Source: Octopus vulgaris (Eukaryota). From it: 64,000 bases of DNA. Shown here in pieces: positions 4,255-59,784 of the stretch. Each line of letters begins with the position of its first letter. Position 1 is the first letter of the stretch. Made by a program: the position numbers and the translations under genes. The DNA lies in NCBI GenBank assembly GCA_951406725.2, contig OX597818.1:48112001-48176000 (forward strand), read 5' to 3'. The notes under the pieces are model-generated. The model searched no databases and had not been told where the DNA came from. It was given only the letters and a program-made list of their open reading frames with translations.

Positions 4255-4676
4255 AGTGTGCTATTGTCAAAATCACTTTAAGAATAAAAAACACTAATAA
4301 AACTAGCTGATATTATAATTTACACTACACTAACTTCTATTCTCTCACCTACTGAGCATTTACTTATGCATTGCTTCACGATTTCTATGTAATTTATCAC
4401 AAAGTTTGCTTGCCCAAGATATTACACAGTGAAACTCAACCCTAGCCAAGTAATTGGAAAAAAAAATTTTTTGACCATTCTAACTACACAGCATCTTCTA
4501 CTTTCTGTCCTCTTTTCACTTTCATTTAGAGAGAATTTCGTTTTGAAACTCTACAATGGTTATTTTCAGCACCTAGTATATCATTCTTAAAAAAATTTTT
4601 AATACTATTCCTAAAATAATCCTAGATGGTTATTTCACTTAATGTACACAGAACAGTAGATTAAAATATTTCTTAC

Positions 4677-5846
4677 CTGTACATGAATACAAAAAAATCC
4701 ATATATTGTAAAAAATAGCATTTGTGCACCAAACACGAAAATTTGCATATTAGAGAAACCATATTTCATGGCTTTTGGATTTGATGATATTTGACTTCTT
4801 CTGGGAATTGTCAGTCCTAAGAATAAGCAGTGACTTCTCTGTAATTTAAAATATGTATAGCAAGAAGCTAAACAAAGACAAATCATTGGTGAAGCCAGTA
4901 GAAAGTTAGGGATTTGTTTCCAGTGAAAATAACTAAGGAAACCTGTATTCCAATAATGGTTTTGAATAAATAAATATGAAATGGGAAGATTGTAATGACA
5001 CCATTCTGAAACATTGGTAGAATTATCTGGAAATTTAAAGCCCATTTCATGTCCATATTTAGTTACATGAATGTCAAAAGGAGTTTTTATTAAGTGGTCC
5101 TTTGGGTCATTTGGTTTACAATAGAGAAGAAAAGTATATAACTGGTATAAGAAAAATGGAGTCACAAGAATTATGATTTGGATGATTGTAAATATAAAGT
5201 TTTTTAGATGCTCTTTCATCATAAACAGCATCTTTTGGGATGAAAAGATAATATTTAAACATTTTTGTGAAAACCAATGGAAGATAAATCCAAGAGCTAC
5301 TATACCATTTGAACGTGTTAAGGCACTAAAACCAAATAATAAAGCAGCATATATCGGTCTTCGTTTCAGGTGTAAAAGCATTCCGGTGAAAGAAAGGAAA
5401 CTGAATAGGCTTTCAGAATATGGAGCCATGAAAAAGACTGAAGCTGGAGAAAGGATGTATAATAATGCTGCTTTGAAAGCCAACGGTTGGCTCCCTGTTG
5501 CTTCTTTTCCTAAGTTGTATAATGCAAGAGATGAAAGAACAGAAAATAGCATGTTGAGAGAAACAGAAGTTAATAGAAGGAGTCTTGAAAAACTGAAGAT
5601 AAAATAGAAAGGGAAATAGATGCAGGATGAAAATATATAAACTGTGAGAGGGAAAAGTGGGAAAAATGCTAAACAGTTTTCGTAAGTGTAGCCATGGTTG
5701 GCAATATGCAGAAAGTAAATGGCATCCCAGCGTCTTAAACCTCCGAAAAGTTTATCAATGAGAGAATCAAACATCCCGGAACTTTCTGGAAAGGGAGAGT
5801 TAAAAACGCCGGCATCATGGTCAGGAAGTATTTCATTTGAAATCAT
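4677..5846 (-). CDS. PIGV: PIGV coding exon 2 (390 codons), GPI mannosyltransferase II
   Basis: ORF 4635-5876 carries PIG-V motifs PDHDA, RWDAIYF, GYTYE..AFFPLFP, PASVFFMAPYSESLF, RSNG, YWNTGFLSYF..KQIPNFLLASP. Poly-T ccag acceptor at 5847-5848; CAG|GTAAGA donor at 4676. Confidence 0.96.
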
Positions 5847-6016
5847 CTGGAAAAAAAAAAAGGATAGATTATACATACATATATGTCATGACACAGAAAT
5901 GCAAATAATTGTGAAAACAGCACCAATAGCAATTATACACACACACACATATATATATACATACATGCACACGCATACTCTTGCACATGTTCAATTCTAA
6001 GTAAAATTATCTGTAA

Positions 6017-9887: not shown

Positions 9888-12800
9888 GTGTCGGTGGCAC
9901 ATAAAATCACCCACTACACTCTCGGAGTGGTTGGCGTTAGGAAGGGCATCCAGCTGTAGAAACACTGCCAGATCTGACTGGCCTGGTGCAGCCTTCGGGC
10001 TCCCCAGACCCCAGTTGAACCGTCCAACCCATGCTAGCATGGAAAGCGGATGTTAAACGATGATGATGATGATGATATATATATATATATGAACGGAGAT
10101 GTGTCGATAGATGCTTGAACGGAGATGTGTCGATGTGTGCTGCATCCAAGAAAGTGGAGAGGAGGCAAAGAACACAGGTACATGATTTTCTGGGCAGGAA
10201 ACACTGACAGGGTTGGGAGCATGGGTATACTTCTTGTGGGGAAATGGGTAGATAAGGTAATCGAGGTAGTCAGAGTATGCGACAGAATACTTAAGATTAG
10301 ATTAGTGCTTCATCATGGGTTAGCAACCATTATCTTGGTGATTCATTTGACAAAGGTAGTAGAGAGCCAATCCGATGATAAATCTGACCTTGGATCTTGA
10401 AAGTTTGCATGAATCCTGGCTCAGTTAAATCTCTTGTGGCTCCAAATGATGTCAACTGTAGCACAGCACAGAATTGTCTAATTTTGTTTTGGAAGTGCAC
10501 ATTAAATTACTCACTGGACTCATTGCTGATTTTCACTGATTTTCATGTCCAGTGAAGGAAAGGTATGCATAAGTGGGCTGGTTACACTCCTGGCATAGAC
10601 CACAAGGTTTATGGTCTCACTTGAGCTTGCCGAGTCTTCTCAAGCACAGCATATTTCCAAAGGTCCCGGTTACAAGCCATTGCCTCGGTGAGGCCCAAAG
10701 TTCGAAGGTCGTGCTTCACCACCTCATCTCAGGAGCTATTTATCTACCTTCACTTTGCTTAGCAACACCAAAAGGACTCTATCAGAGTTTTCTTCACACC
10801 GATGAGTGCTAAAGGTAGGGGCTTACTCCTAACTAAATACTCCTCTTGCAGCTGGGTCACTGAAAATACGACATCTCTTTCTAGGACAAAGTTGAAATGA
10901 ATCTCAATCAAGCTAATCCTGTTCCTACCCAGTTTTGCAAAAACCTTTCATAACCTGATCCAACAATTTGATGCCTTGGTAGTTTTCTCCTCTAAGGTGT
11001 CTCCCTTGGCCCTTTTAGCAGTTTCAATTAGCATTGTTTTGATAGTCACTGAATATGACACATTCCTGCATGACTTGACTATTCAAATAACTAGTCTGTA
11101 CCCTACATTGCTTCATATTTTATGCACCTCAGTGACCCTCCTGATGAATCAGCTGGTTTTCCTACATTCACGTCCTTAACCCTTTAGTGTTCAGATTATT
11201 CTGTTAAATGTAATACTTTTTCACTCAAATTGTTTTGAATTAATTATGCATGATCTTATAGCTTTGAAGTTTCAATGATGTGATTGTTTATTTTTAGAAT
11301 GTCAATGTAGGCGCAGGAGTGGCTGTGTGGTAAGTAGCTTGTTTACCAACCACATGGTTCCGGGTTCAGTCCCACTGCGTGGCACCTTGGGCAAGTGTCT
11401 TCTACTATAGCCTCGGGCCAGCCGAAGCCTTGTGAGTGGATTTGGTAGACGGAAACTGAAAGAAGCCTGTCGTATATATGTATATATATATATATGCGTG
11501 TGTGTGCTTGTCCCCCTAGCATTGCTTGACAACCGATGTTGGTGTGTTTATGTCCCCGTTCGGCAAGAGAGTCCGATAGAATAAGTACTGGGCTTACAAA
11601 AGAATAAGTCCCGAGTTGCTCGATTAAAGGCGGTGCTCCAGCATGGCTGCAGTCAAATGACTGAAACAAGTAAAAGAGTAGGTTAGGTGTGAGAGGCTGG
11701 ATCTGGCCAGTTTGAATATAAAACTTGTAGAATACTTTGGGCTGGATATGGCCGGTTTAAACACTAAAGGGTTAATCACTCAACTAAAAGTGGTGCTCCA
11801 GCATGGCAAAACTGAAAAATTTAATAAACATAGGCGTAGAAGTGGCTGTGTGGTAAGTAGCTTGTTTACCAACCACATGGTTCCGGGTTCAGTCCCACTG
11901 AATAAAGGGTTAATCACTCTATCAACTACATTACTGTCAATTTGGCTGGCTGTCCCTCTTCTGAGTTTACTTGGGGTAGACTCTCTCTCTCCCATCAAAA
12001 GCCTCTCATTGAAACACTTTCATACCTCTTTCATCTAGCATCGGTGAGAGCAACTGTGCAGCTATCATTCTGTATACACTTCCCCCGTTGACATCTTTTC
12101 TTTTGTCCACTGCTTAGCTACCTGGAAAATCTCACTTCTAGTCCTCACATCACAGAACATAAGCAACATCTTCCTTTCTCCTACATATACATGACATCTA
12201 GTTTCTCTTCTAGCTTTTGATCTTTTTCTCTTCCACCTGCTTTCTTCCAGTTTTCCCAAGCTTGGCTCTTAGTAGTTATGACTCTGTCTACAATATTGTT
12301 CCAACACCATGTTTCCTTGTGTTTATCCAAAACCTTGCAGCAGCCACAAATGTGGACTATAGCCCTCGGCAGATTGTGTAGTAAAAACTACCAATTTTGC
12401 TTCCATTATTAGTCTCTCTCATAATACCTACATAACCCCTGAAATAAGTATCAGTTATTACCTTTCTTGAAACCCCTACAATAAGTTTTAGTAAATACCA
12501 GTAGAGGGTTGTATCAGCTTCCATGTCTTTCTTTTCCAAATCCTGTTTTGATCCTTATTAAGAGTAGCTAACATTTTGAAGTCACTAGCCACTTATCTGT
12601 GGAGGCGCAATGGCCCAACAGTTAGGGCAGTCGACTCGCAGTTGGAGGATCGAGGTTTCGATTCCCAGACCACGTGTTGTGTGTGTTTATTGAGCAAAAA
12701 CACTTAAAGCTCCACGAGGCTCCGGCAGGGAGTGGTGGCAACCCCTGTTGTTCTCTTTCACCCCAACTTTCTCTCACTCTTTCTTCCTTTTTCTTGAGTA

Positions 12801-14008
12801 ATGCTGCGATGGACTGGCGTCCTGTCCAGCTGGGGGGAATACATATGCCATAGAAACTGGGCCCATGAGCCTGGCTAGGCTTGAAAAGGGTGCATAAATA
12901 AAATAAAACCACTTATCTATGTTGAGTAGTACATTCTTTATCTGGGAAAAGCGTGGCACTTACAGTCATTAACCTATGGTGTTTCCTGGTATGAATAAGG
13001 GACTGTAATCTCACTTCTAGCACCATGGGTAAGTGTCTTCTACTATAGCCTTAGGCCAACCAAAGCTTTGTGAGTGGATTTGGTAGACGGAAACTGAAAG
13101 AAGCCATGTTGATCATGATAATGTTATTTTTATGTTGTGCAATGATCACGAGCAAGTTATTGAATATTTAAGAGGGATGGATTTCTTTTCTTTTTGAGTT
13201 AAAAGAAAAAAATTCAATTTAAAAAATGTTTCATCAAAATAATTCTCATCTCCAACTTTGAAAACATATCTCTGCAAAAGACATTTTAAAAAAATGTAAG
13301 GAAGCAAAATCTCAAGAATTGGAGTACTGAATCTTTGACAAAGACAATATACGCCATGGAAACTGGTTAGGCTTTAAAAGGGCGCAATGGCCCAGTGGTT
13401 AGGGCAGCGGACTCGCGGTCGGAAGATCGCTGTTTCGATTCGCAGACTGGGCGTTGTGTGTGTTTATTGAGCGAAAACACCTAAAGCTCCACAAGGCTCT
13501 GGCGACCCCTGTTGTACTCTTTCGTCCCAACTTTCTCTCAATCTCTCTTCCTGTTTCTTGAGTAATGCTGCGATGGATTGGCGTCCCGTCCAGCTGGGGG
13601 GGGGGGGGGGGGCACATACGCCACAGAAACCGGGAAACCGGGCCCACGAGCCTGGCTAGGCTTGAAAAGGGCGCATAAAAAAAAATAAATAAAACTTATT
13701 TTAAAGATGAAAGGCAAAGTCAACCCCGGTGGAATTTGAACTCAAGACGTAAAGTCGGAAGAAATGCCGTTAAGCTCCCCTTATTTTTTCCGGCACCATA
13801 GCGATTCTGGCAGTTTGTTATCCCTCGGGCAAAGGCAATATTAAAAGTTATAAGAAAATGTTGAAATATGGAGTTATCTCCCTTTACATTTTATTATTAG
13901 TACACAACGATTATAGTCGTCAATACAGTAATCCCTTGACTATCGCTGGTGTTACGTTCCAAAACCCCCGCGATTGGTGAAAATCCACGAAGTAGAAACA
14001 ATACTGTA

Positions 14009-14064
<56 letters not shown>

Positions 14065-14341
14065 GTATAAGGACACCGTGACGGTGTCGAGCCTTTCTGG
14101 TGACGTCGATGTTCGCCTGGGGCTAAATGCAACAGTAACACCCCCACCACCCTGCCCTGTCCCTAGCCATATTCAGATGGCTTTAGTCCCTTATGTTATC
14201 GAGCAGTTACTGTCTATATCTCTTTTAGAGAATTATTATTGCTTTCGAACAGATTTTCGAAATCAGCAAATGTATTTTGCTTGAAAATCTATATATGAAT
14301 ATCCTGCAGAGTGAGAGTTCGTCGAGGAAGCGGAAGCCTAC

Positions 14342-14387
14342 CACACGCCGACGATAGGCAATACACCTTGAAACCATGGTCCGTGTG
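14342..14387 (+). ncRNA. Minimal type-I hammerhead ribozyme motif, copy 1 (variant core CCGACGA)
   Basis: CACACG-CCGACGA-t-AGG(caataca)CCT-t-GAAA-C(CATG)G-TC-CGTGTG. Helix I is extended by GAAGCGGAAGCC/GGTTTCCGCTTC. Predicted cut after C14381. Confidence 0.75.
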
Positions 14388-14701
14388 TGGTTTCCGCTTC
14401 ATCGGGGAATTACCTCCCTTTGCAGGTTAAGGACACCGTGACGGTGTCGAGCCTTTCTGGTGACGTCGATGTTCGCCTGGGGCTAAATGCAACAGTAACA
14501 CCCCCACCACCCTGCCCCGTCCCTAGCCATATTCAGATGGCTTTAGTCCCTTATGTTATCGAGCAGTTACTGTCTATATCTCTTTTAGAGAATTTTTATT
14601 GCTTTCGAATAGATTTTCGAAATCAGCAAATGTATTTTGCTTGAAAATCTATATATGAATATCCTGCAGAGTGAGAGTTCGTCGAGGAAGCGGAAGCCTA
14701 C

Positions 14702-14747
14702 CACACGCCGACGATAGGCAATACACCTTGAAACCATGGTCCGTGTG
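14702..14747 (+). ncRNA. Minimal type-I hammerhead ribozyme motif, copy 2
   Basis: Identical to copy 1, exactly 360 bp downstream. Predicted cut after C14741. Confidence 0.75.
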
Positions 14748-14961
14748 TGGTTTCCGCTTCATCGGGGAATTACCTCCCTTTGCAGGTTAAGGACACCGTG
14801 ACGGTGTCGAGCCTTTCTGGTGACGTCGATGTTCGCCTGGGGCTAAATGCAACAGTAACACCCCCACCACCCTGCCCTGTCCCTAGCCATATTCAGATGG
14901 CTTTAGTCCCTTATGTTATCGAGCAGTTACTGTCTATATCTCTTTTAGAGAATTATTATTG

Positions 14962-15552
<591 letters not shown>

Positions 15553-18191
15553 TTATTTATTGTCCACAAGACGCTAAACAAGGGCCGACAAAGGGATTAA
15601 GTCGATTACATCGATCCCAGTGCGTAACTGGTACTATATATAAACGACCCCGAAAGGATGAAAGGCAAAGTCGACCTCAATGTAATTTGAACTCAGAACG
15701 TAACGGCAGACGAAATACCGCTAACGATTCTGCCAGACTGAGCAGATACAAATGTTTTATTATAAACCCAAAACAACATCACGGAGGCATCGCCATAAGC
15801 TTAAATAAGAAACTGCGATATGGCGAGGAATTACTGTAAAAGAAAATATATAATATACAGATCTCAAAAGTCATTATCACAGCTATCAATTTTAATGAAC
15901 ATGCTGGACTTGGGTACAGTACAAAAAATGAGGAAAGATCAGGTCTTTTGAAGTTCTGCAATGCAAATCATCTCAGAATCTGCTACATATTCTTCAGGAA
16001 TTTGTCTATCCACCAGACCATCTTTTAATCAGGTTAACACAGAAGCCATACAGTCCCTTATTCATACCAGGAAACACCATAGGTTAATGACTGTAAGTGC
16101 CACGCTTTTCCCAGATAAAGAATGTACTACTCAACATAGATAAGTGGTTTTATTTTATTTATGCACCCTTTTCAAGCCTAGCCAGGCTCATGGGCCCAGT
16201 TTCTATGGCATATGTATTCCCCCCAGCTGGACAGGACGCCAGTCCATCGCAGCATTACTCAAGAAAAAGGAAGAAAGAGTGAGAGAAAGTTGGGGTGAAA
16301 GAGAACAACAGGGGTTGCCACCACTCCCTGCCGGAGCCTCGTGGAGCTTTAAGTGTTTTTGCTCAATAAACACACACAACACGTGGTCTGGGAATCGAAA
16401 CCTCGATCCTCCAACTGCGAGTCGACTGCCCTAACTGTTGGGCCATTGCGCCTCCACAGATAAGTGGCTAGTGACTTCAAAATGTTAGCTACTCTTAATA
16501 AGGATCAAAACAGGATTTGGAAAAGAAAGACATGGAAGCTGATACAACCCTCTACTGGTATTTACTAAAACTTATTGTAGGGGTTTCAAGAAAGGTAATA
16601 ACTGATACTTATTTCAGGGGTTATGTAGGTATTATGAGAGAGACTAATAATGGAAGCAAAATTGGTAGTTTTTACTACACAATCTGCCGAGGGCTATAGT
16701 CCACATTTGTGGCTGCTGCAAGGTTTTGGATAAACACAAGGAAACATGGTGTTGGAACAATATTGTAGACAGAGTCATAACTACTAAGAGCCAAGCTTGG
16801 GAAAACTGGAAGAAAGCAGGTGGAAGAGAAAAAGATCAAAAGCTAGAAGAGAAACTAGATGTCATGTATATGTAGGAGAAAGGAAGATGTTGCTTATGTT
16901 CTGTGATGTGAGGACTAGAAGTGAGATTTTCCAGGTAGCTAAGCAGTGGACAAAAGAAAAGATGTCAACGGGGGAAGTGTATACAGAATGATAGCTGCAC
17001 AGTTGCTCTCACCGATGCTAGATGAAAGAGGTATGAAAGTGTTTCAATGAGAGGCTTTTGAAGGGAGAGAGAGAGTCTACCCCAAGTAAACTCAGAAGAG
17101 GGACAGCCAGCCAAATTGACAGTAATGTAGTTGATAGAGTGATTAACCCTTTATTCAGTGGGACTGAACCCGGAACCATGTGGTTGGTAAACAAGCTACT
17201 TACCACACAGCCACTTCTACGCCTATGTTTATTAAATTTTTCAGTTTTGCCATGCTGGAGCACCACTTTTAGTTGAGCAAATCAACCCCAGGACTTATTC
17301 TTTGTAAGCCTAGTACTTATTCTATTGGTCTCTTTTGCCAAACCGCTAAGTTATGGGAACATAAACACATTAGAAGACACTTGCCCAAGGTGCCATGCAG
17401 TGGGACTGAACCCAGAACCATGTGGTTGGTAAGCATGCTACTTACCACAAAGCCACTCCTACGCCTGTGAGTGCCATCTTTTTTTCTCTTTAGCACTCTT
17501 CCAAAGTCTTTCAATATTTTGGGTGTGAAAGGTGGCAAGCTGGCAGAATTGTTAGCATACTGGATGAAATGCTCAGCGGTATTTCATCTGCTGCTGCATT
17601 CTTGGGTCAAATTCCACTGAGGTCAACTTATGCTCTTCATCTTTTCAGGGTTGATGAAATAAGTACCAGTTACACACTGGGGTTAATGTAATCGTCTAGC
17701 CCCTTTCCCCAAAAAATTTTCAAGGCCTTGTGCCTAGAGTAGAAATAATTATTTAAGGCAGTGAGCTGGCAGAATCGTTAGAATGCCAGGTGAAATACTT
17801 AGAGGTATTTCGTTTGTCTTTATGTTCTGAGTTCAATTTCCGCCGAGATCGACTTTGCCTTTCATCCTTTCAGGGTCGATAAATTAAGTATCAGTTGCAT
17901 ATTAGGGTCAATCTAATCAACTGGCCCCCTCCCTGAAAATTTAAGGCCTTGTGCCTAGAGCAGAAAAGTATACTTTGGATGTGAGCTCTATTAGTAGGAT
18001 TGACAAAGTGTAGAGAATGATAAACAGTGAGAATTGTTAATTTTGGTCAGCCCAAGGCTATAGTAGAAGACACTTGCCCAAGGTGCCATGCAGTGAGACG
18101 GAACCTGGAACCATGTGGTTGGTAAGTAAGCTACTTACCACACAGCCACTCCTACGCTGAAAATGACCAATATTATATTTTTATATGCTGA

Positions 18192-19360: not shown

Positions 19361-19821
19361 GGATCTTTTCGCTTTGACCGGCAGATTTTTAAAATAATTT
19401 CTTTGTAACTAAACACTTTTAAACTTCGTATACTGGTAGAATGTGTTTATAAAACATCTTTTTCTCTTGGCTTTATTGAGAAAATTCTATGGATTGTAAG
19501 ATATTTCCTCTTTAATTTCTTAATTTTCAGCAATTTCAACCAATCAATGACGTCTATTGAGGTGAAAATAATATCTGCCGAAGGCTGTCAACAGCAATTT
19601 TTTGCGGATATTGTTTTCACCTCAATAGACGTCATTGATTGGTTGAAATTGCTGAAAATTAAGAAATTAAAGAGGAAATAGCTTACAAACTACAGAATTT
19701 TCTCAATAAAGCCAAGAGAAAAAAATGTTTTATAAACACATTCTACCAGTATACGAAGTTTAAAAGTGTTTAGTTACAAAGAAATCATTTTAAAAATCTG
19801 CCGGTCAAAGCGTAAAGATCC
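19361..19821. mobile_element. Palindromic MITE (arms about 215 bp), probably Merlin-type
   Basis: GGATCTTTTCGCTTTGACCGGCAG...CTGCCGGTCAAAGCGTAAAGATCC; almost the whole element is self-complementary; 8-bp TSD aagatttg/aagattcg. Confidence 0.85.
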
Positions 19822-38132: not shown

Positions 38133-38180
38133 GAGAACAGTGTTGTGAAAAATAAAAATGAAACTTTGAAGAATTTTCCT
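38133..38180 (+). CDS. TADA3: Candidate 48-nt TADA3 exon (ENSVVKNKNETLKNFP)
   Basis: Long polypyrimidine tract ending tctttcag, GTAAGT donor, open phase 0-0 matching the flanking exons. No homology evidence. Confidence 0.6.
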
Positions 38181-42060: not shown

Positions 42061-43630
42061 AAACAACAGGTGCATTGTTGTGCCTGAGAAGACACATCCA
42101 GCCAAGTAAAATCAAGGCCGTAAAGGCATGTCCTTTACATCCATGCACCACCACCCTACAAACAATCAGTCCCTGGCAGACCTCTTCCCCCATGTTCCAT
42201 CTTCCCAACACCTCCTTTCCCTCCACCCATGCTCACCACCCTCAGTATTCCCCTCTCCTCTGTCTCCCACTCACCCTTGCTATCCTACCTGCACACAAAT
42301 GTCTTGTCAAATCTCTTCCCCACAGCATACCCTTCTAATCCCCACTCCATCTTTCACTCTCCATTTGCAGTATTGTAAACTTACTCATCCTCTCAAATCC
42401 CCTTCACTATATACACCTCCCTGTAACTTGAGTCTATACCCCATCATATGTACACCATCTTATTTCTGCCTCTCTCTCTTTTTCCACCTGAGATATAGCC
42501 ATGTTTCTCCTCTACTACTAGACCCCTGTTTCTGTCCCTCAATAGTACACATCAGTTGAGACTGGGAGAAGTGAGGGGGAACTCTTGTCTTTCAAGTTAC
42601 TTGGTGGCCTCACTGCTGCCAGTACCACTTAAAAAGCACCCAATACACTCTGTAAAGTGGTTGGCATTATGAAGAGCTGTAGAAACGATGCCAATGCAAA
42701 CAGTAGAACTTGAGGCAGTCCAACTTTTACCAGCATGGAAAGCAGACATTAAATGATGATGATGATGATTTATTTGGAATTATTTTTCGTATAGTCTCCT
42801 ATTTTCCCAAGCTTGTTCTTGAGGTACAGGGCCTATTTAACTGTAAGACAGGAAGACTGGTTCATCCAACATCAAAGCATGTTCACACCCAATAGTCCTG
42901 TGTGACACATGTCTAAAGGCCATCCCTCCTCTGAGCCCTTATGTTTCAGCCACAATACCATCTGCTAGTTGACCCATAACTAGTGCTCTTGACAGGTACT
43001 AATAGTCTAAACACTGCTAGTATTAATTGTCTTTCATCTGAAATATATGTTTGTATAAGGCGGCGAGGTGGCAGAAACATTAGCACACCGGACGAAATGT
43101 TTAGTGGTATTTTGTCTGTTTTTACATTCTGAGTTCAAATTCATCCGAGGTCGACTTTGCCTTTCATCCTTTCAGAGTCAATAAATTAAGTACCAGTTGC
43201 ATACTGGTGTCGATCTAATCGACTGAACTCCCTCCCCAAAAATTTCAGGCAAGCTGGCAGAAACGTTAGCACACTGTGCGAAATGTTTAGTGGTATTTTG
43301 TCTGTCTTTACATTCTGAGTTCAAATTCCACCGAGATTGACTTTGCCTTTCATCCTTTCGGAGTCAATAAATTAAGTACCAGTTGCATACTGGGGTCGAT
43401 CTAATCGACTGACCTCCCTCCCCAAAAATTTCAGGCCTTGTGCCTAGAATAGAAAAGAATATATGTTTGTATGTCTTCACAATAAATACAAGGTCAGAAT
43501 ACAAATGTTAGCAGTCTACTAATAGATTTAAAAGTATGTTTTTTAGATGAAGGTTAAACATCAGCATTTAGCTTGTACAAGAAAGATCAATACTATATGT
43601 TACTTTATATATATATACATATATATATAT

Positions 43631-44052
43631 GTAATGATAAATCTCAGAGCGAGTTATAAACAATGGCGGTAACACATTGTGACGCATATTTGCCATTTGA
43701 ATATGGCTAACCCCTAAGGGTGGATGCTACTGTAGTTTGTAGCCCCAGGAAGATATCTCCTCCAGCTGGCTATAGACACACTATCTGTGCCCTATCAGTA
43801 TTTGTGAAGGGAAGTCATCCTTCCCGTCTTCAACTATGATTGTCACACGCTGATGATAGGTAAACACCTTGAAACTCGAGTCCGTGTGTATCATAAGTTG
43901 AAGACAGGAAGGATGACTTCCCTTCACAAATACTGATAGGGCACAGATAGTGTGTCTATAGCCAGCTGGAGGAGATATCTCCCTGGGGCTACAAACTACA
44001 GTAGCATCCACCCTTAGGGGTTAGCCATATACAAATGGCAAATATGCGTCAC
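43631..44052. mobile_element. Fold-back element in (TA)n: inverted arms 43679-43840 / 43890-44052 with a hammerhead between them
   Basis: Arms are reverse complements with a handful of mismatches/indels; TA-rich runs on both sides; homologous to the 14-kb unit. Confidence 0.85.
43844..43888 (+). ncRNA. Minimal type-I hammerhead ribozyme, canonical core, in a TADA3 intron (sense)
   Basis: CACACG-CTGATGA-t-AGGT(aaac)ACCT-t-GAAA-C(TCGA)G-TC-CGTGTG. Predicted cut after C43882. Confidence 0.85.
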
Positions 44053-45118
44053 TATATATATATATATGTGTATATATATATCCTGGCTTCATTTTTTTCT
44101 GCTAGCATAATAAAGTTGATCTTATTAAAGTTAAGAATATAAGAGTTGAATATTATTATTATGTAAAAAGCTATTAGCAATTTGATTTGAATATATAACT
44201 TTTTATCTCATTGTTTGTGGTGTCAAATTTTGGCCTAGATTATCAGGTATCTTTTAGGCAAAGTATGACATTGTATATTAGCAAGGTATCTATTCAGTTA
44301 TCCCTTTGAGGGTGGGGGTCACTTTAGAAGCAGGTAAGTATCTAGATTCAAATTTTTCTGCATTTTTAACACCACTTAACTAGCCTCATTCTTAGATTTT
44401 GATTATAAATTTATTTTATGCACTGTCTTTGCATATCCTTTGTCACTTTTATACTTAAATCTTTCTTCTTTGGGCTAGAATCCTTGCACCTCTCAACCCT
44501 CTCGTAGAACCTACGGCAAACTCCTATATTATTTTTGCCTCATTTAGTAAGCCTTTCCTTACCGTCTGCTTTTTATTTTTCCATTATTGCTGTTGCTTTT
44601 CTTGTTATCAAAAGCTTTTCTAGACATGCTTCATTGGTAATACATTTTTTAAACTAATTATAATTTTTATCTCAATCTAAGCATCTTGTTTTAATAAATT
44701 TTATTTCCTTTGTCCTTACTTTGCCTTACTAAATCTGATAAAGTCCAAAGGACAGGAAATTTATTTTGAAACTTTTGCATGGTTAGTGATCCATTCTGTT
44801 GTTATCAGTGGTCCTAATTTAAGCACCATCCTTATTTCATAAAACCAAGCTTAGTTTTAATCCATAATCAGTTTTAGTCTCATAAATTTGCTTTCAGTTC
44901 TGTCATTTGTGTCTATAGACAAAAGATAATCTCAGTTGTATTTTTAGTGCTGTTTGTGGTATTTTCATCACTTTGTGTTTTATGCTAGTTTTTTTTTTTT
45001 TTTAAATTTTTCAAAACTTATCACTGTCAGTCTTTCTCGGATAACTTGGCACTATATTTTGACTTTTTGCATTCATTATGTGCAGGTATTTCAATTTGTG
45101 TAAAATGCCATTAGGTAG

Positions 45119-46166: not shown

Positions 46167-46196
46167 GGTCGTCCAAGAAGCAGATGGAGGAATGAG
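46167..46196 (+). CDS. TADA3: Candidate 30-nt TADA3 microexon (GRPRSRWRNE) overlapping the 5' edge of an RTE-LINE remnant
   Basis: gtatttcctcacatag acceptor, GAG|GTAATA donor, phase 0-0, no stop codon. Confidence 0.35.
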
Positions 46197-51918: not shown

Positions 51919-52056
51919 GCTTCCGATGTGCCAGTCGTGAAACGGGGGAAAGGTGGCAGTGGAGCTGAAGACAAACCAAACAAAAAATTCAAAGACAGCA
52001 ATGGAAAAGCCACTCATTGTAGTGGACCAGGAAGGCCAAAGAACAAAAATTCACAA
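51919..52056 (+). CDS. TADA3: TADA3 coding exon (ASDVPVVKRGKGG...GPGRPKNKNSQ)
   Basis: Very long T-tract plus ccag acceptor; GPGRPK.KN motif of ADA3; donor GTTAGT. Confidence 0.92.
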
Positions 52057-53339
52057 GTTAGTAACTTTCCAATTAAATTCTAATTGTTCCAATTTTACAT
52101 GCAAATTTAAAATTATTATATTTCTTAGATCTGAGATACATCTGATGGATACTCTGGGATGCATCATCAGTGATGTTTGTGGGGTCCCATGGAGGGTTTC
52201 GAGTCTTTTAACATCAGACCCTTCACCCAGTTAATCCACACCTGCAGTTGATCAAGTCGCAGCTTCAATAATGGAATTTATGGCCCTCCTCTTTACTGCA
52301 CCAGTAACCCCAAGCCCATTCACATCATTTTAATTCACAGCAATAACCCTGGTTTCACATTTTGGTGCAAAGCCGGCAATTTCGGGAGAGGAACTGAGTC
52401 AGTTACATCAACTGGTATTTATTTTATCGATCCCAAAAGGATGAAAGGCAAAGTCAGCCTCGGAGGAATTTGAACTCAGAATATAAAAACTGACAAAATG
52501 CCTCTAAGTATTTTGTCTGGCATGCTAACGATTCTGCCAGCTTGCCAGCTTAATTCGTTGAATCAATATTGTTCCTATTTTTTAAAAATATATAAAATTT
52601 TGTTACATGGATATTTTTCAAGTGGCTCTTTGGCTGGTTTATGGAAAAGAAACCACCACCAGAGACTCTTGACCAGCCAGAGAGTAGGAAAGATGTGGAA
52701 GGAGTTCAGGAAATTGTAACCCCTTGGTAAATGGAGGATTTCTCTTTCCACATGAATGACAGAAGCAAATGTTAGAATAGTGATGCTAAATGTTGGGAGA
52801 CATGAATTACCTGTGTGTAAAAGATTGACAGCAGTGATGTAACTATGATCCATTGTTTATGTCATGTTAACCTACATGAAAGGCAAAGCACAAGCTGAGA
52901 AAGTCTTGTAGAAGTGAAGTGTTTATATTCATCATCATCATTGTTTAACATCCGCTTTCCGTGCTGGCATGGGTTAAACAGTTTGACTGAGGACTGGCAA
53001 GCCAGGGGGCTGCACCAGGCTCCAATCTGATCTGGCAAGGTTTCTACAGCTGGATGCCCTTCCTAATGCCAACCACCCTGAGAGTGTAGTGGGTGCTTTT
53101 TACGTACCTCTGGCACAGGGGCCAGTCAGCAGCGCTGGCATCAACCACGCTTGAATGGTGCTTTTTATATGCCAGTCAGGTGGCACTAGCATCAGCCACG
53201 CTCAAGTGGTGCTTTTTACATGCTACTGGCATGGGTGCCTGTCAGGCAGAACTGACATCGGCCACGGCTATGATTTCACTTGACTCAACAGGTCTTCTCA
53301 AGTACAGCATAATGCCTGACAAGTGAAGGGTACTTTCAT

Positions 53340-59712: not shown

Positions 59713-59784
59713 AGGTCTCACCGAGACTTGAACTCGGATCACTGGATTCAGAGTCCAGAGTGATAACCATTACACCATGAGACC
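59713..59784 (-). tRNA. tRNA-Gln (anticodon CTG)
   Basis: GGTCTCATGGTGTAATGGTTATCACTCTGGACTCTGAATCCAGTGATCCGAGTTCAAGTCTCGGTGAGACCT: 7-bp acceptor stem, CTGGA/TCCAG anticodon stem, CCGAG/CTCGG T-stem, TTTT terminator 8 nt downstream. Confidence 0.9.

Follow-up and report, generated by a model that had tools for sequence, protein, structure and literature searches.

A hammerhead-capped hairpin in a TADA3 intron of Octopus vulgaris as a probable head-to-head insertion of a 352-nt non-LTR retrozyme

The analysed window is a 64,000-nt stretch of the Octopus vulgaris genome in which the TADA3 gene is located on the + strand. The TADA3 exons were placed by alignment of database proteins (Table 1); a 451-aa protein labelled as TADA3 of O. 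vulgaris / O. bimaculoides agrees letter for letter with the window exons, and the Ada3 domain maps just past the window edge on the + strand. A scan with TADA3 motifs gave no match. A 420-nt inverted element lies in an intron of this gene in the sense orientation, as the original prediction had stated and as the flanking exons confirm. That prediction also spoke of nearby cassette exons; one such exon was found, but not several. This 30-nt exon is present in three and skipped in three of the six octopod proteins examined. Since it is both included and skipped in the annotated isoforms of other octopods, its alternative splicing there is common to several species.

Table 1. Features of the inverted element and the neighbouring TADA3 exons (positions in the window; m, position in the 352-nt unit, m1 being the first base after the predicted cut)
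Feature	Position	Strand	Basis or remark
TADA3 exon upstream of the element	38133..38180	+	database protein match
Left (TA)n target flank	43619..43632		direct reading of the sequence
46-nt one-sided tail, unit m171-216	43633..43678	-	outer end is the putative RT start site B (m216)
Inverted 5'-truncated arm, reverse complement of unit m14-170	43679..43835	-	arm and family alignment
Head-to-head junction, 5-nt microhomology	43831..43835		supplied by the natural extension of helix I, in which m301-305 pairs with m14-18
Natural 5' strand of helix I and its extension, m301-319	43831..43849	+	forward arm begins here
Type I hammerhead core	43850..43882	+	motif reading, family alignment, sub-threshold Rfam match
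Forward arm, unit m1-170	43883..44052	+	outer end is the putative RT start site A (m170)
Right (TA)n target flank	44053..44081		direct reading of the sequence
TADA3 30-nt cassette exon, 2.1 kb downstream of the element	46167..46196	+	database protein match
TADA3 exon downstream of the element	51919..52059	+	database protein match

The inverted arms at 43676-43835 and 43896-44055 are 160 nt in length and 98% complementary; the part derived from the element itself (the right arm being 43896-44052) forms 157 bp with three mismatches. After a 1-nt bulge, the arms pair for 5 bp further (43836-43840 with 43890-43894), which leaves a loop of 49 nt. The predicted fold has an energy of -339.3 kcal/mol (z = -32.6), and none of 100 shuffled sequences was equally stable. 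Complementarity and fold energy thus confirm the arms and 49-nt loop reported earlier, and the pairing coordinates bear out the claim that the long hairpin is continuous with helix I of a hammerhead. Two features had been overlooked: the unpaired 46-nt extension, present on the left arm only, and the (TA)n sequence on both sides of the element. The apparent TSD is about 13-14 nt (43619-43632 versus 44056-44069), its boundary being blurred by microsatellite slippage. The element has no ORF for RT and GIY-YIG; its stop-to-stop frames are short, the longest (79 aa) being antisense. Apart from the tandem unit, the element showed no direct repeats at its termini.

The hammerhead is formed on the + strand by helix I (43844-43849 with 43883-43888), the CUGAUGA box (43850-43856), helix II (AGGU/ACCU with the loop AAAC), GAAA (43871-43874), a 2-bp helix III capped by UCGA, and the GUC triplet, with the predicted cut after C43882. 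The window copy thus has the CUGANGA, GAAA, and NUH letters, the three helices, and the open helix I of a type I hammerhead. The description of this motif as canonical holds for the core letters, but not for helix II, which has a U.U mismatch at its base, nor for helix III with its 2 bp. The match to Rfam Hammerhead_1 (RF00163) in a search of 181 nt scored 21.9 bits (E 0.003), under the gathering score of 34, and a whole-window Rfam search at the gathering score did not report the hammerhead. The nearest-neighbour probability of the exact hammerhead fold, 1e-5, is uninformative because tertiary contacts are absent from the model. In the family described below, the core with an NUH triplet is kept in 76 of 93 hammerhead copies (67 loci). 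Among 53 distinct gap-free copies, 97.9% of cells are paired and compensatory change is seen at two pairs; as the copies are related, this covariation reflects few events.

The 2-bp tetralooped helix III and the U.U at the helix II base are shared with the axolotl HHR_Amex2, whose monomer, according to the available text of PMC7229834, cleaves 22% in 1 h and whose dimer cleaves better. By this analogy, the earlier suggestion that the octopus hammerhead may need a dimer partner is plausible, and weak monomer cleavage at C43882 is predicted in TADA3 pre-mRNA, both halves staying paired. Eight of nine Xenopus retrozyme dimers are given as showing no cleavage in vitro in the available part of bioRxiv 10.64898/2026.07.22.740005. 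The octopus subfamilies co-vary at position 10.1, in the helix III loop (palindromic or not), and in the triplet (GUC or GUA). These differences may mark dimer-dependent and monomer-active forms.

A genome search with the element gave 118 matches among the best 40 scored of 2723 candidates, these matches being chosen by likeness to the query. Two exact patterns gave 101 and 530 genome matches (the latter with a single 29-mer), and their reversed controls gave none. The family occurs as natural direct tandems with a 352-bp period and one hammerhead per unit, and also as 5'-truncated solos; in the natural unit, the hammerhead is already enclosed by an imperfect stem of about 50 bp. It has the characters of non-LTR retrozymes: low-GC tandems within the 150-450-bp range, each unit having a type I HHR, no coding capacity, no LTR structure, and TSDs longer than 4 bp (8-15 nt in five of the eight inverted pairs outside microsatellites). 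The element is a young copy of this high-copy non-LTR retrozyme family. It had been proposed that the locus might otherwise be an inert one-off inversion product; this alternative is wrong, as such inversions are a routine outcome of insertion in this high-copy retrozyme. Because core intactness is the family norm, it says nothing of selection at the TADA3 locus. A related retrozyme family, alignable across the full unit, is present elsewhere in the window as 2.5 tandem 360-bp units (14068-14963, +); it has the variant core CCGACGA and another helix III palindrome, and ends at the site-B equivalent in (TA)n.

In unit numbering, the window copy consists of m14-216 in reverse complement, followed by m301-352 and m1-170. 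Its arms are 222 and 203 nt in length, and each holds sequence absent from the other; they differ at three of 149 compared positions, which marks the copy as young.

A census of copies was based on 100 loci, which were the first-listed matches of the two exact patterns and were not chosen by inversion; matches below 86% identity were ignored. Removal of 16 loci that overlapped others or belonged to the window, and of L070 as an apparent duplicate, left 83 loci. L068 and L070 have an identical layout, are 373 kb apart on C1, and probably represent a segmental duplication. Head-to-head pairs were found at 51 of the 83 loci, the other 32 having no adjacent inverted partner. The outer ends were classed as A (m170, range 166-177) or B (m216, range 212-220). 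One end of each class was present in 43 of the 51 pairs, A+A and B+B did not occur, and eight pairs had one non-standard end; under independent 50:50 ends, the chance of such an A+B excess is about 1e-13. Both sites are located in hairpin loops predicted downstream of the hammerhead. A (TA)n flank accompanies 43 of the 51 pairs, and TSDs were seen in five of the remaining eight, as given above. The cleavage site is read through in 38 of 86 arms, which suggests that uncleaved or religated RNA was copied.

Arm divergence is 2.4% within an insertion and 3.6% between loci, the value within being lower in 34 of 39 cases. This fits one source for both arms, but fits conversion too; later deletion or conversion could change both the lengths and the similarity of arms. 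Two other regularities of the arm ends were considered. A preference for arms to begin at the cleavage site was not established (2 of 86 arms, 0.44 expected, p 0.07). In loci L066-L130, 11 of 86 arms have their 5' end within m40-53, where the extended stem has its base, against 3.9 expected (nominal p 0.002), but the interval was picked post hoc and p is 0.12 after scan correction, so a truncation hot spot here is only suggestive.

The junctions of the 51 pairs overlap by 1-6 nt in 23 cases and by more than 6 nt in two, are blunt in six, and contain filler in 20. Their positions are scattered, and none of these 51 unselected pairs is in the register of the hammerhead stem. A fixed fold-back point was therefore rejected: the genome does contain many family copies, but the fold-back point varies among them. 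The window junction was defined by comparing natural upstream with reverse-complemented downstream sequence and by m305/m13 covariation; 43831-43849 is the same as in natural tandem copies of the window's subfamily. The first pattern set, with anchors of that subfamily, gave genome-wide two matches at gaps 37-67 (one being the window), two at gaps 6-36, and three at gaps 68-98, with no spike at stem-register gaps. With the second set, the stem-register gap of 20 received all three genome-wide matches and 30 other gaps none, the probability by chance being about 0.03 for each match; gap length serves as its own control. These three copies had been seen before the second pattern was designed, and two of them share one subfamily. 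The helix-I stem is at most a minor junction hot spot, of which the window copy is an example. Whenever the junction falls in helix I, the core must end up at the tip of a long hairpin. The view of the element as a purpose-built ribozyme-capped rod is thus not supported, the hammerhead being at the apex only since the junction fell in helix I.

We consider it highly probable that a 352-nt non-LTR retrozyme was inserted here in inverted, head-to-head form. A Penelope-like RT/GIY-YIG protein is the likely agent, and the insertion is likely to be neutral for TADA3. An uncleaved tandem or circular retrozyme RNA would be bound by the protein of a Penelope-like element (PLE), and both target strands would be nicked about 8-15 nt apart. 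A cDNA would be primed by each 3'-OH, at m170 in one case and at m216 in the other; synthesis would end at varying positions, after which the cDNA 3' ends would be joined by microhomology. In the window copy, the cDNAs would have annealed via the ribozyme's own helix-I complementarity. We infer twin priming, in which each nicked strand starts a single cDNA, the two strands using different sites. The more specific proposal that a two-subunit RT primes once per nicked strand, always at different sites, with cDNAs joined by microhomology and the hammerhead stem acting as a stall or annealing site, seems to us evenly poised between right and wrong.

This scheme has counterparts in PLEs. An inverted pLTR, one-sided tail, TSD, and head-to-head arrangement are a described PLE pattern (available text of PMC3846280 and PMC8557442), and the formation of the inverted repeat and one-sided tail is named as unresolved in the accessible part of PMC8557442. 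For the purified Anolis Poseidon PAc, the available text of PMC11167929 describes that both strands are cut and extended, that two RT start sites bound the tail, that uncleaved RNA is used, and that a dimer is predicted. The octopus family resembles PAc in two internal start sites bounding a tail, AT-rich targets, and an uncleaved template; in that text, the two sites are not tied to inverted insertions, and no pairing of one of each is reported.

A GIY-YIG search of the octopus genome gave at least 150 matches scored of 6136 candidates, several of them in 781-aa frames with RT. These RT ORFs with a C-terminal GIY-YIG are intact, are inserted in (TA)n, and contain a C-x4-C-x2-C linker, which denotes the Neptune type in the available text of PMC8557442; their PLEs have two ends 38 nt apart, i.e., a 38-nt tail. 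No PLE sharing pLTR sequence with the retrozyme was found among 44 GIY-YIG loci examined (6136 candidates), and local alignment of the A/B region to the 44 PLE loci was at shuffle level except for L172. The latter was rejected as the autonomous partner, as its 82% match is a separate insertion, 600 bp from the PLE's end. L167-L170, L179, L180, and many other GIY-YIG matches belong to a young, abundant 781-aa-ORF PLE with an upstream open frame; no hammerhead was found in loci of this PLE by relaxed motif scans. L172 (1321-4483), L173, and L176 represent a second PLE family, which carries a minimal hammerhead of its own about 150-180 nt before the end, with a U.U-based helix II and a palindromic helix III. 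L172 has 766-bp arms of 100% identity, apparently ending at the same site.

An insertion of the same retrozyme could also have become inverted by self-primed fold-back, a model discussed in the available text of PMC3846280, in which one strand serves as its own template after folding back at a palindrome, for instance helix I. The greater similarity of arms within an insertion than between random copies and the location of some junctions, including that of the window, within the natural stem agree with it. A self-copy, however, must lie inside its template: containment of the A arm within the B arm is possible in 11 of the 43 A+B pairs, whereas in the other 32, as in the window copy, neither arm contains the other. 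These non-contained arms speak against self-priming and for twin priming, and with no unselected junction in stem register, we regard self-priming as unlikely. The inverted arms might also be an assembly artefact, a fold-back chimeric read, palindromes being known to arise in this way; given the three arm differences, the family-wide A/B end rule, and the TSDs of sister copies, this is barely conceivable. A MITE or foldback DNA transposon with a captured hammerhead, moving as a fixed palindrome, would account for long inverted arms and TA-rich flanks. The original prediction had already set the element apart from MITEs, and rightly so: its ends are asymmetric owing to the 46-nt tail, the junction is different in nearly every copy, and the sequence is found as 352-bp direct tandems and 5'-truncated solos, which makes a MITE most improbable.

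There is also the reading of the element as a host-exapted regulator, a ribozyme-capped rod nicked or edited in TADA3 pre-mRNA and tuning the cassette exon. Its core is intact and sense to TADA3, its hairpin is very stable, and the exon is 2.1 kb away. However, it is a young copy of a high-copy family, in which an intact core is usual, and both cassette isoforms are annotated in other octopods; we consider exaptation very unlikely. Contigs of one presumed-RNA run cover the repeat and not the unique flanks, so they cannot be assigned to the TADA3 locus. A>G differences in the repeat were rejected as editing, since they are equally frequent in DNA-like runs and thus represent family variants. 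Nothing found indicates a special role in TADA3, for which the retrozyme insertion is likely neutral. Like any inverted repeat, the 157-bp dsRNA in TADA3 pre-mRNA is predicted to be open to ADAR editing. Heavy A-to-I editing is known in the animal group of the octopus, and if the proportion of 51 of 83 holds, the family would be a source of many long, perfect dsRNA stems in its genome. The HH9/RECK-type intronic hammerheads of amniotes are single-copy and deeply conserved; the octopus hammerhead shares with them the sense orientation within a host intron, but it is a young member of a repeat family.

When compared with known metazoan non-LTR retrozymes, such as those of mussel (350-390 bp) and the axolotl Rtz_353 with HHR_Amex2 (available text of PMC7229834), the octopus family shows clear likeness. 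It shares a non-coding low-GC unit of about 350 nt with one type I hammerhead, tandems and dispersed copies, long TSDs, and co-occurring PLEs (PMC7229834 and bioRxiv 10.64898/2026.07.22.740005, available parts). Tandems and monomers, but no head-to-head insertions, are described in those parts, and the word "inverted" does not occur in the main text of PMC7229834; in the octopus, most dispersed copies are inverted A/B pairs. With EN+ PLEs, as presented in the available text of PMC3846280 and PMC8557442, the family shares an inverted 5'-truncated copy, a tail at one end, a TSD, partial tandems, microhomology junctions, and a hammerhead upstream of the ends, and with Neptune-type PLEs a bias for microsatellites with (TA)n targets. 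Unlike EN+ PLEs, the retrozyme has no ORF; its tail is 46 nt versus 30-40 nt, and no sequence link to a specific PLE was found among the 44 loci examined. In the part of the literature searched, no statement of an octopus retrozyme family, of strict A/B pairing, or of PLE twin priming was found.

The locus itself is ordinary, one intronic retrozyme copy, and its value lies in the family. The 43:0 A+B rule together with the non-contained arms makes a sharp prediction for the existing PAc in vitro system. If true, two-site priming would account at once for the inverted pLTR and the one-sided tail, and tests of how PLEs build inverted insertions would have a minimal substrate in the 352-nt RNA.

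Several other features of the window can be noted. An inverted duplication of 1229 bp (11779-13007 and 16049-17277, 99.9% identity) flanks a region of about 3 kb with the 360-bp tandem as well as a long (TA)n tract. A 460-bp self-palindrome (19361-19821, 93%), in which a motif scan found no hammerhead, is a possible MITE. A tRNA gene (59713-59784, -; 66.8 bits) with a CUG anticodon (Gln) is antisense in a TADA3 intron. Finally, a 416-aa open frame at 4638-5885 (-) resembles a GPI mannosyltransferase and may be PIGV-like.
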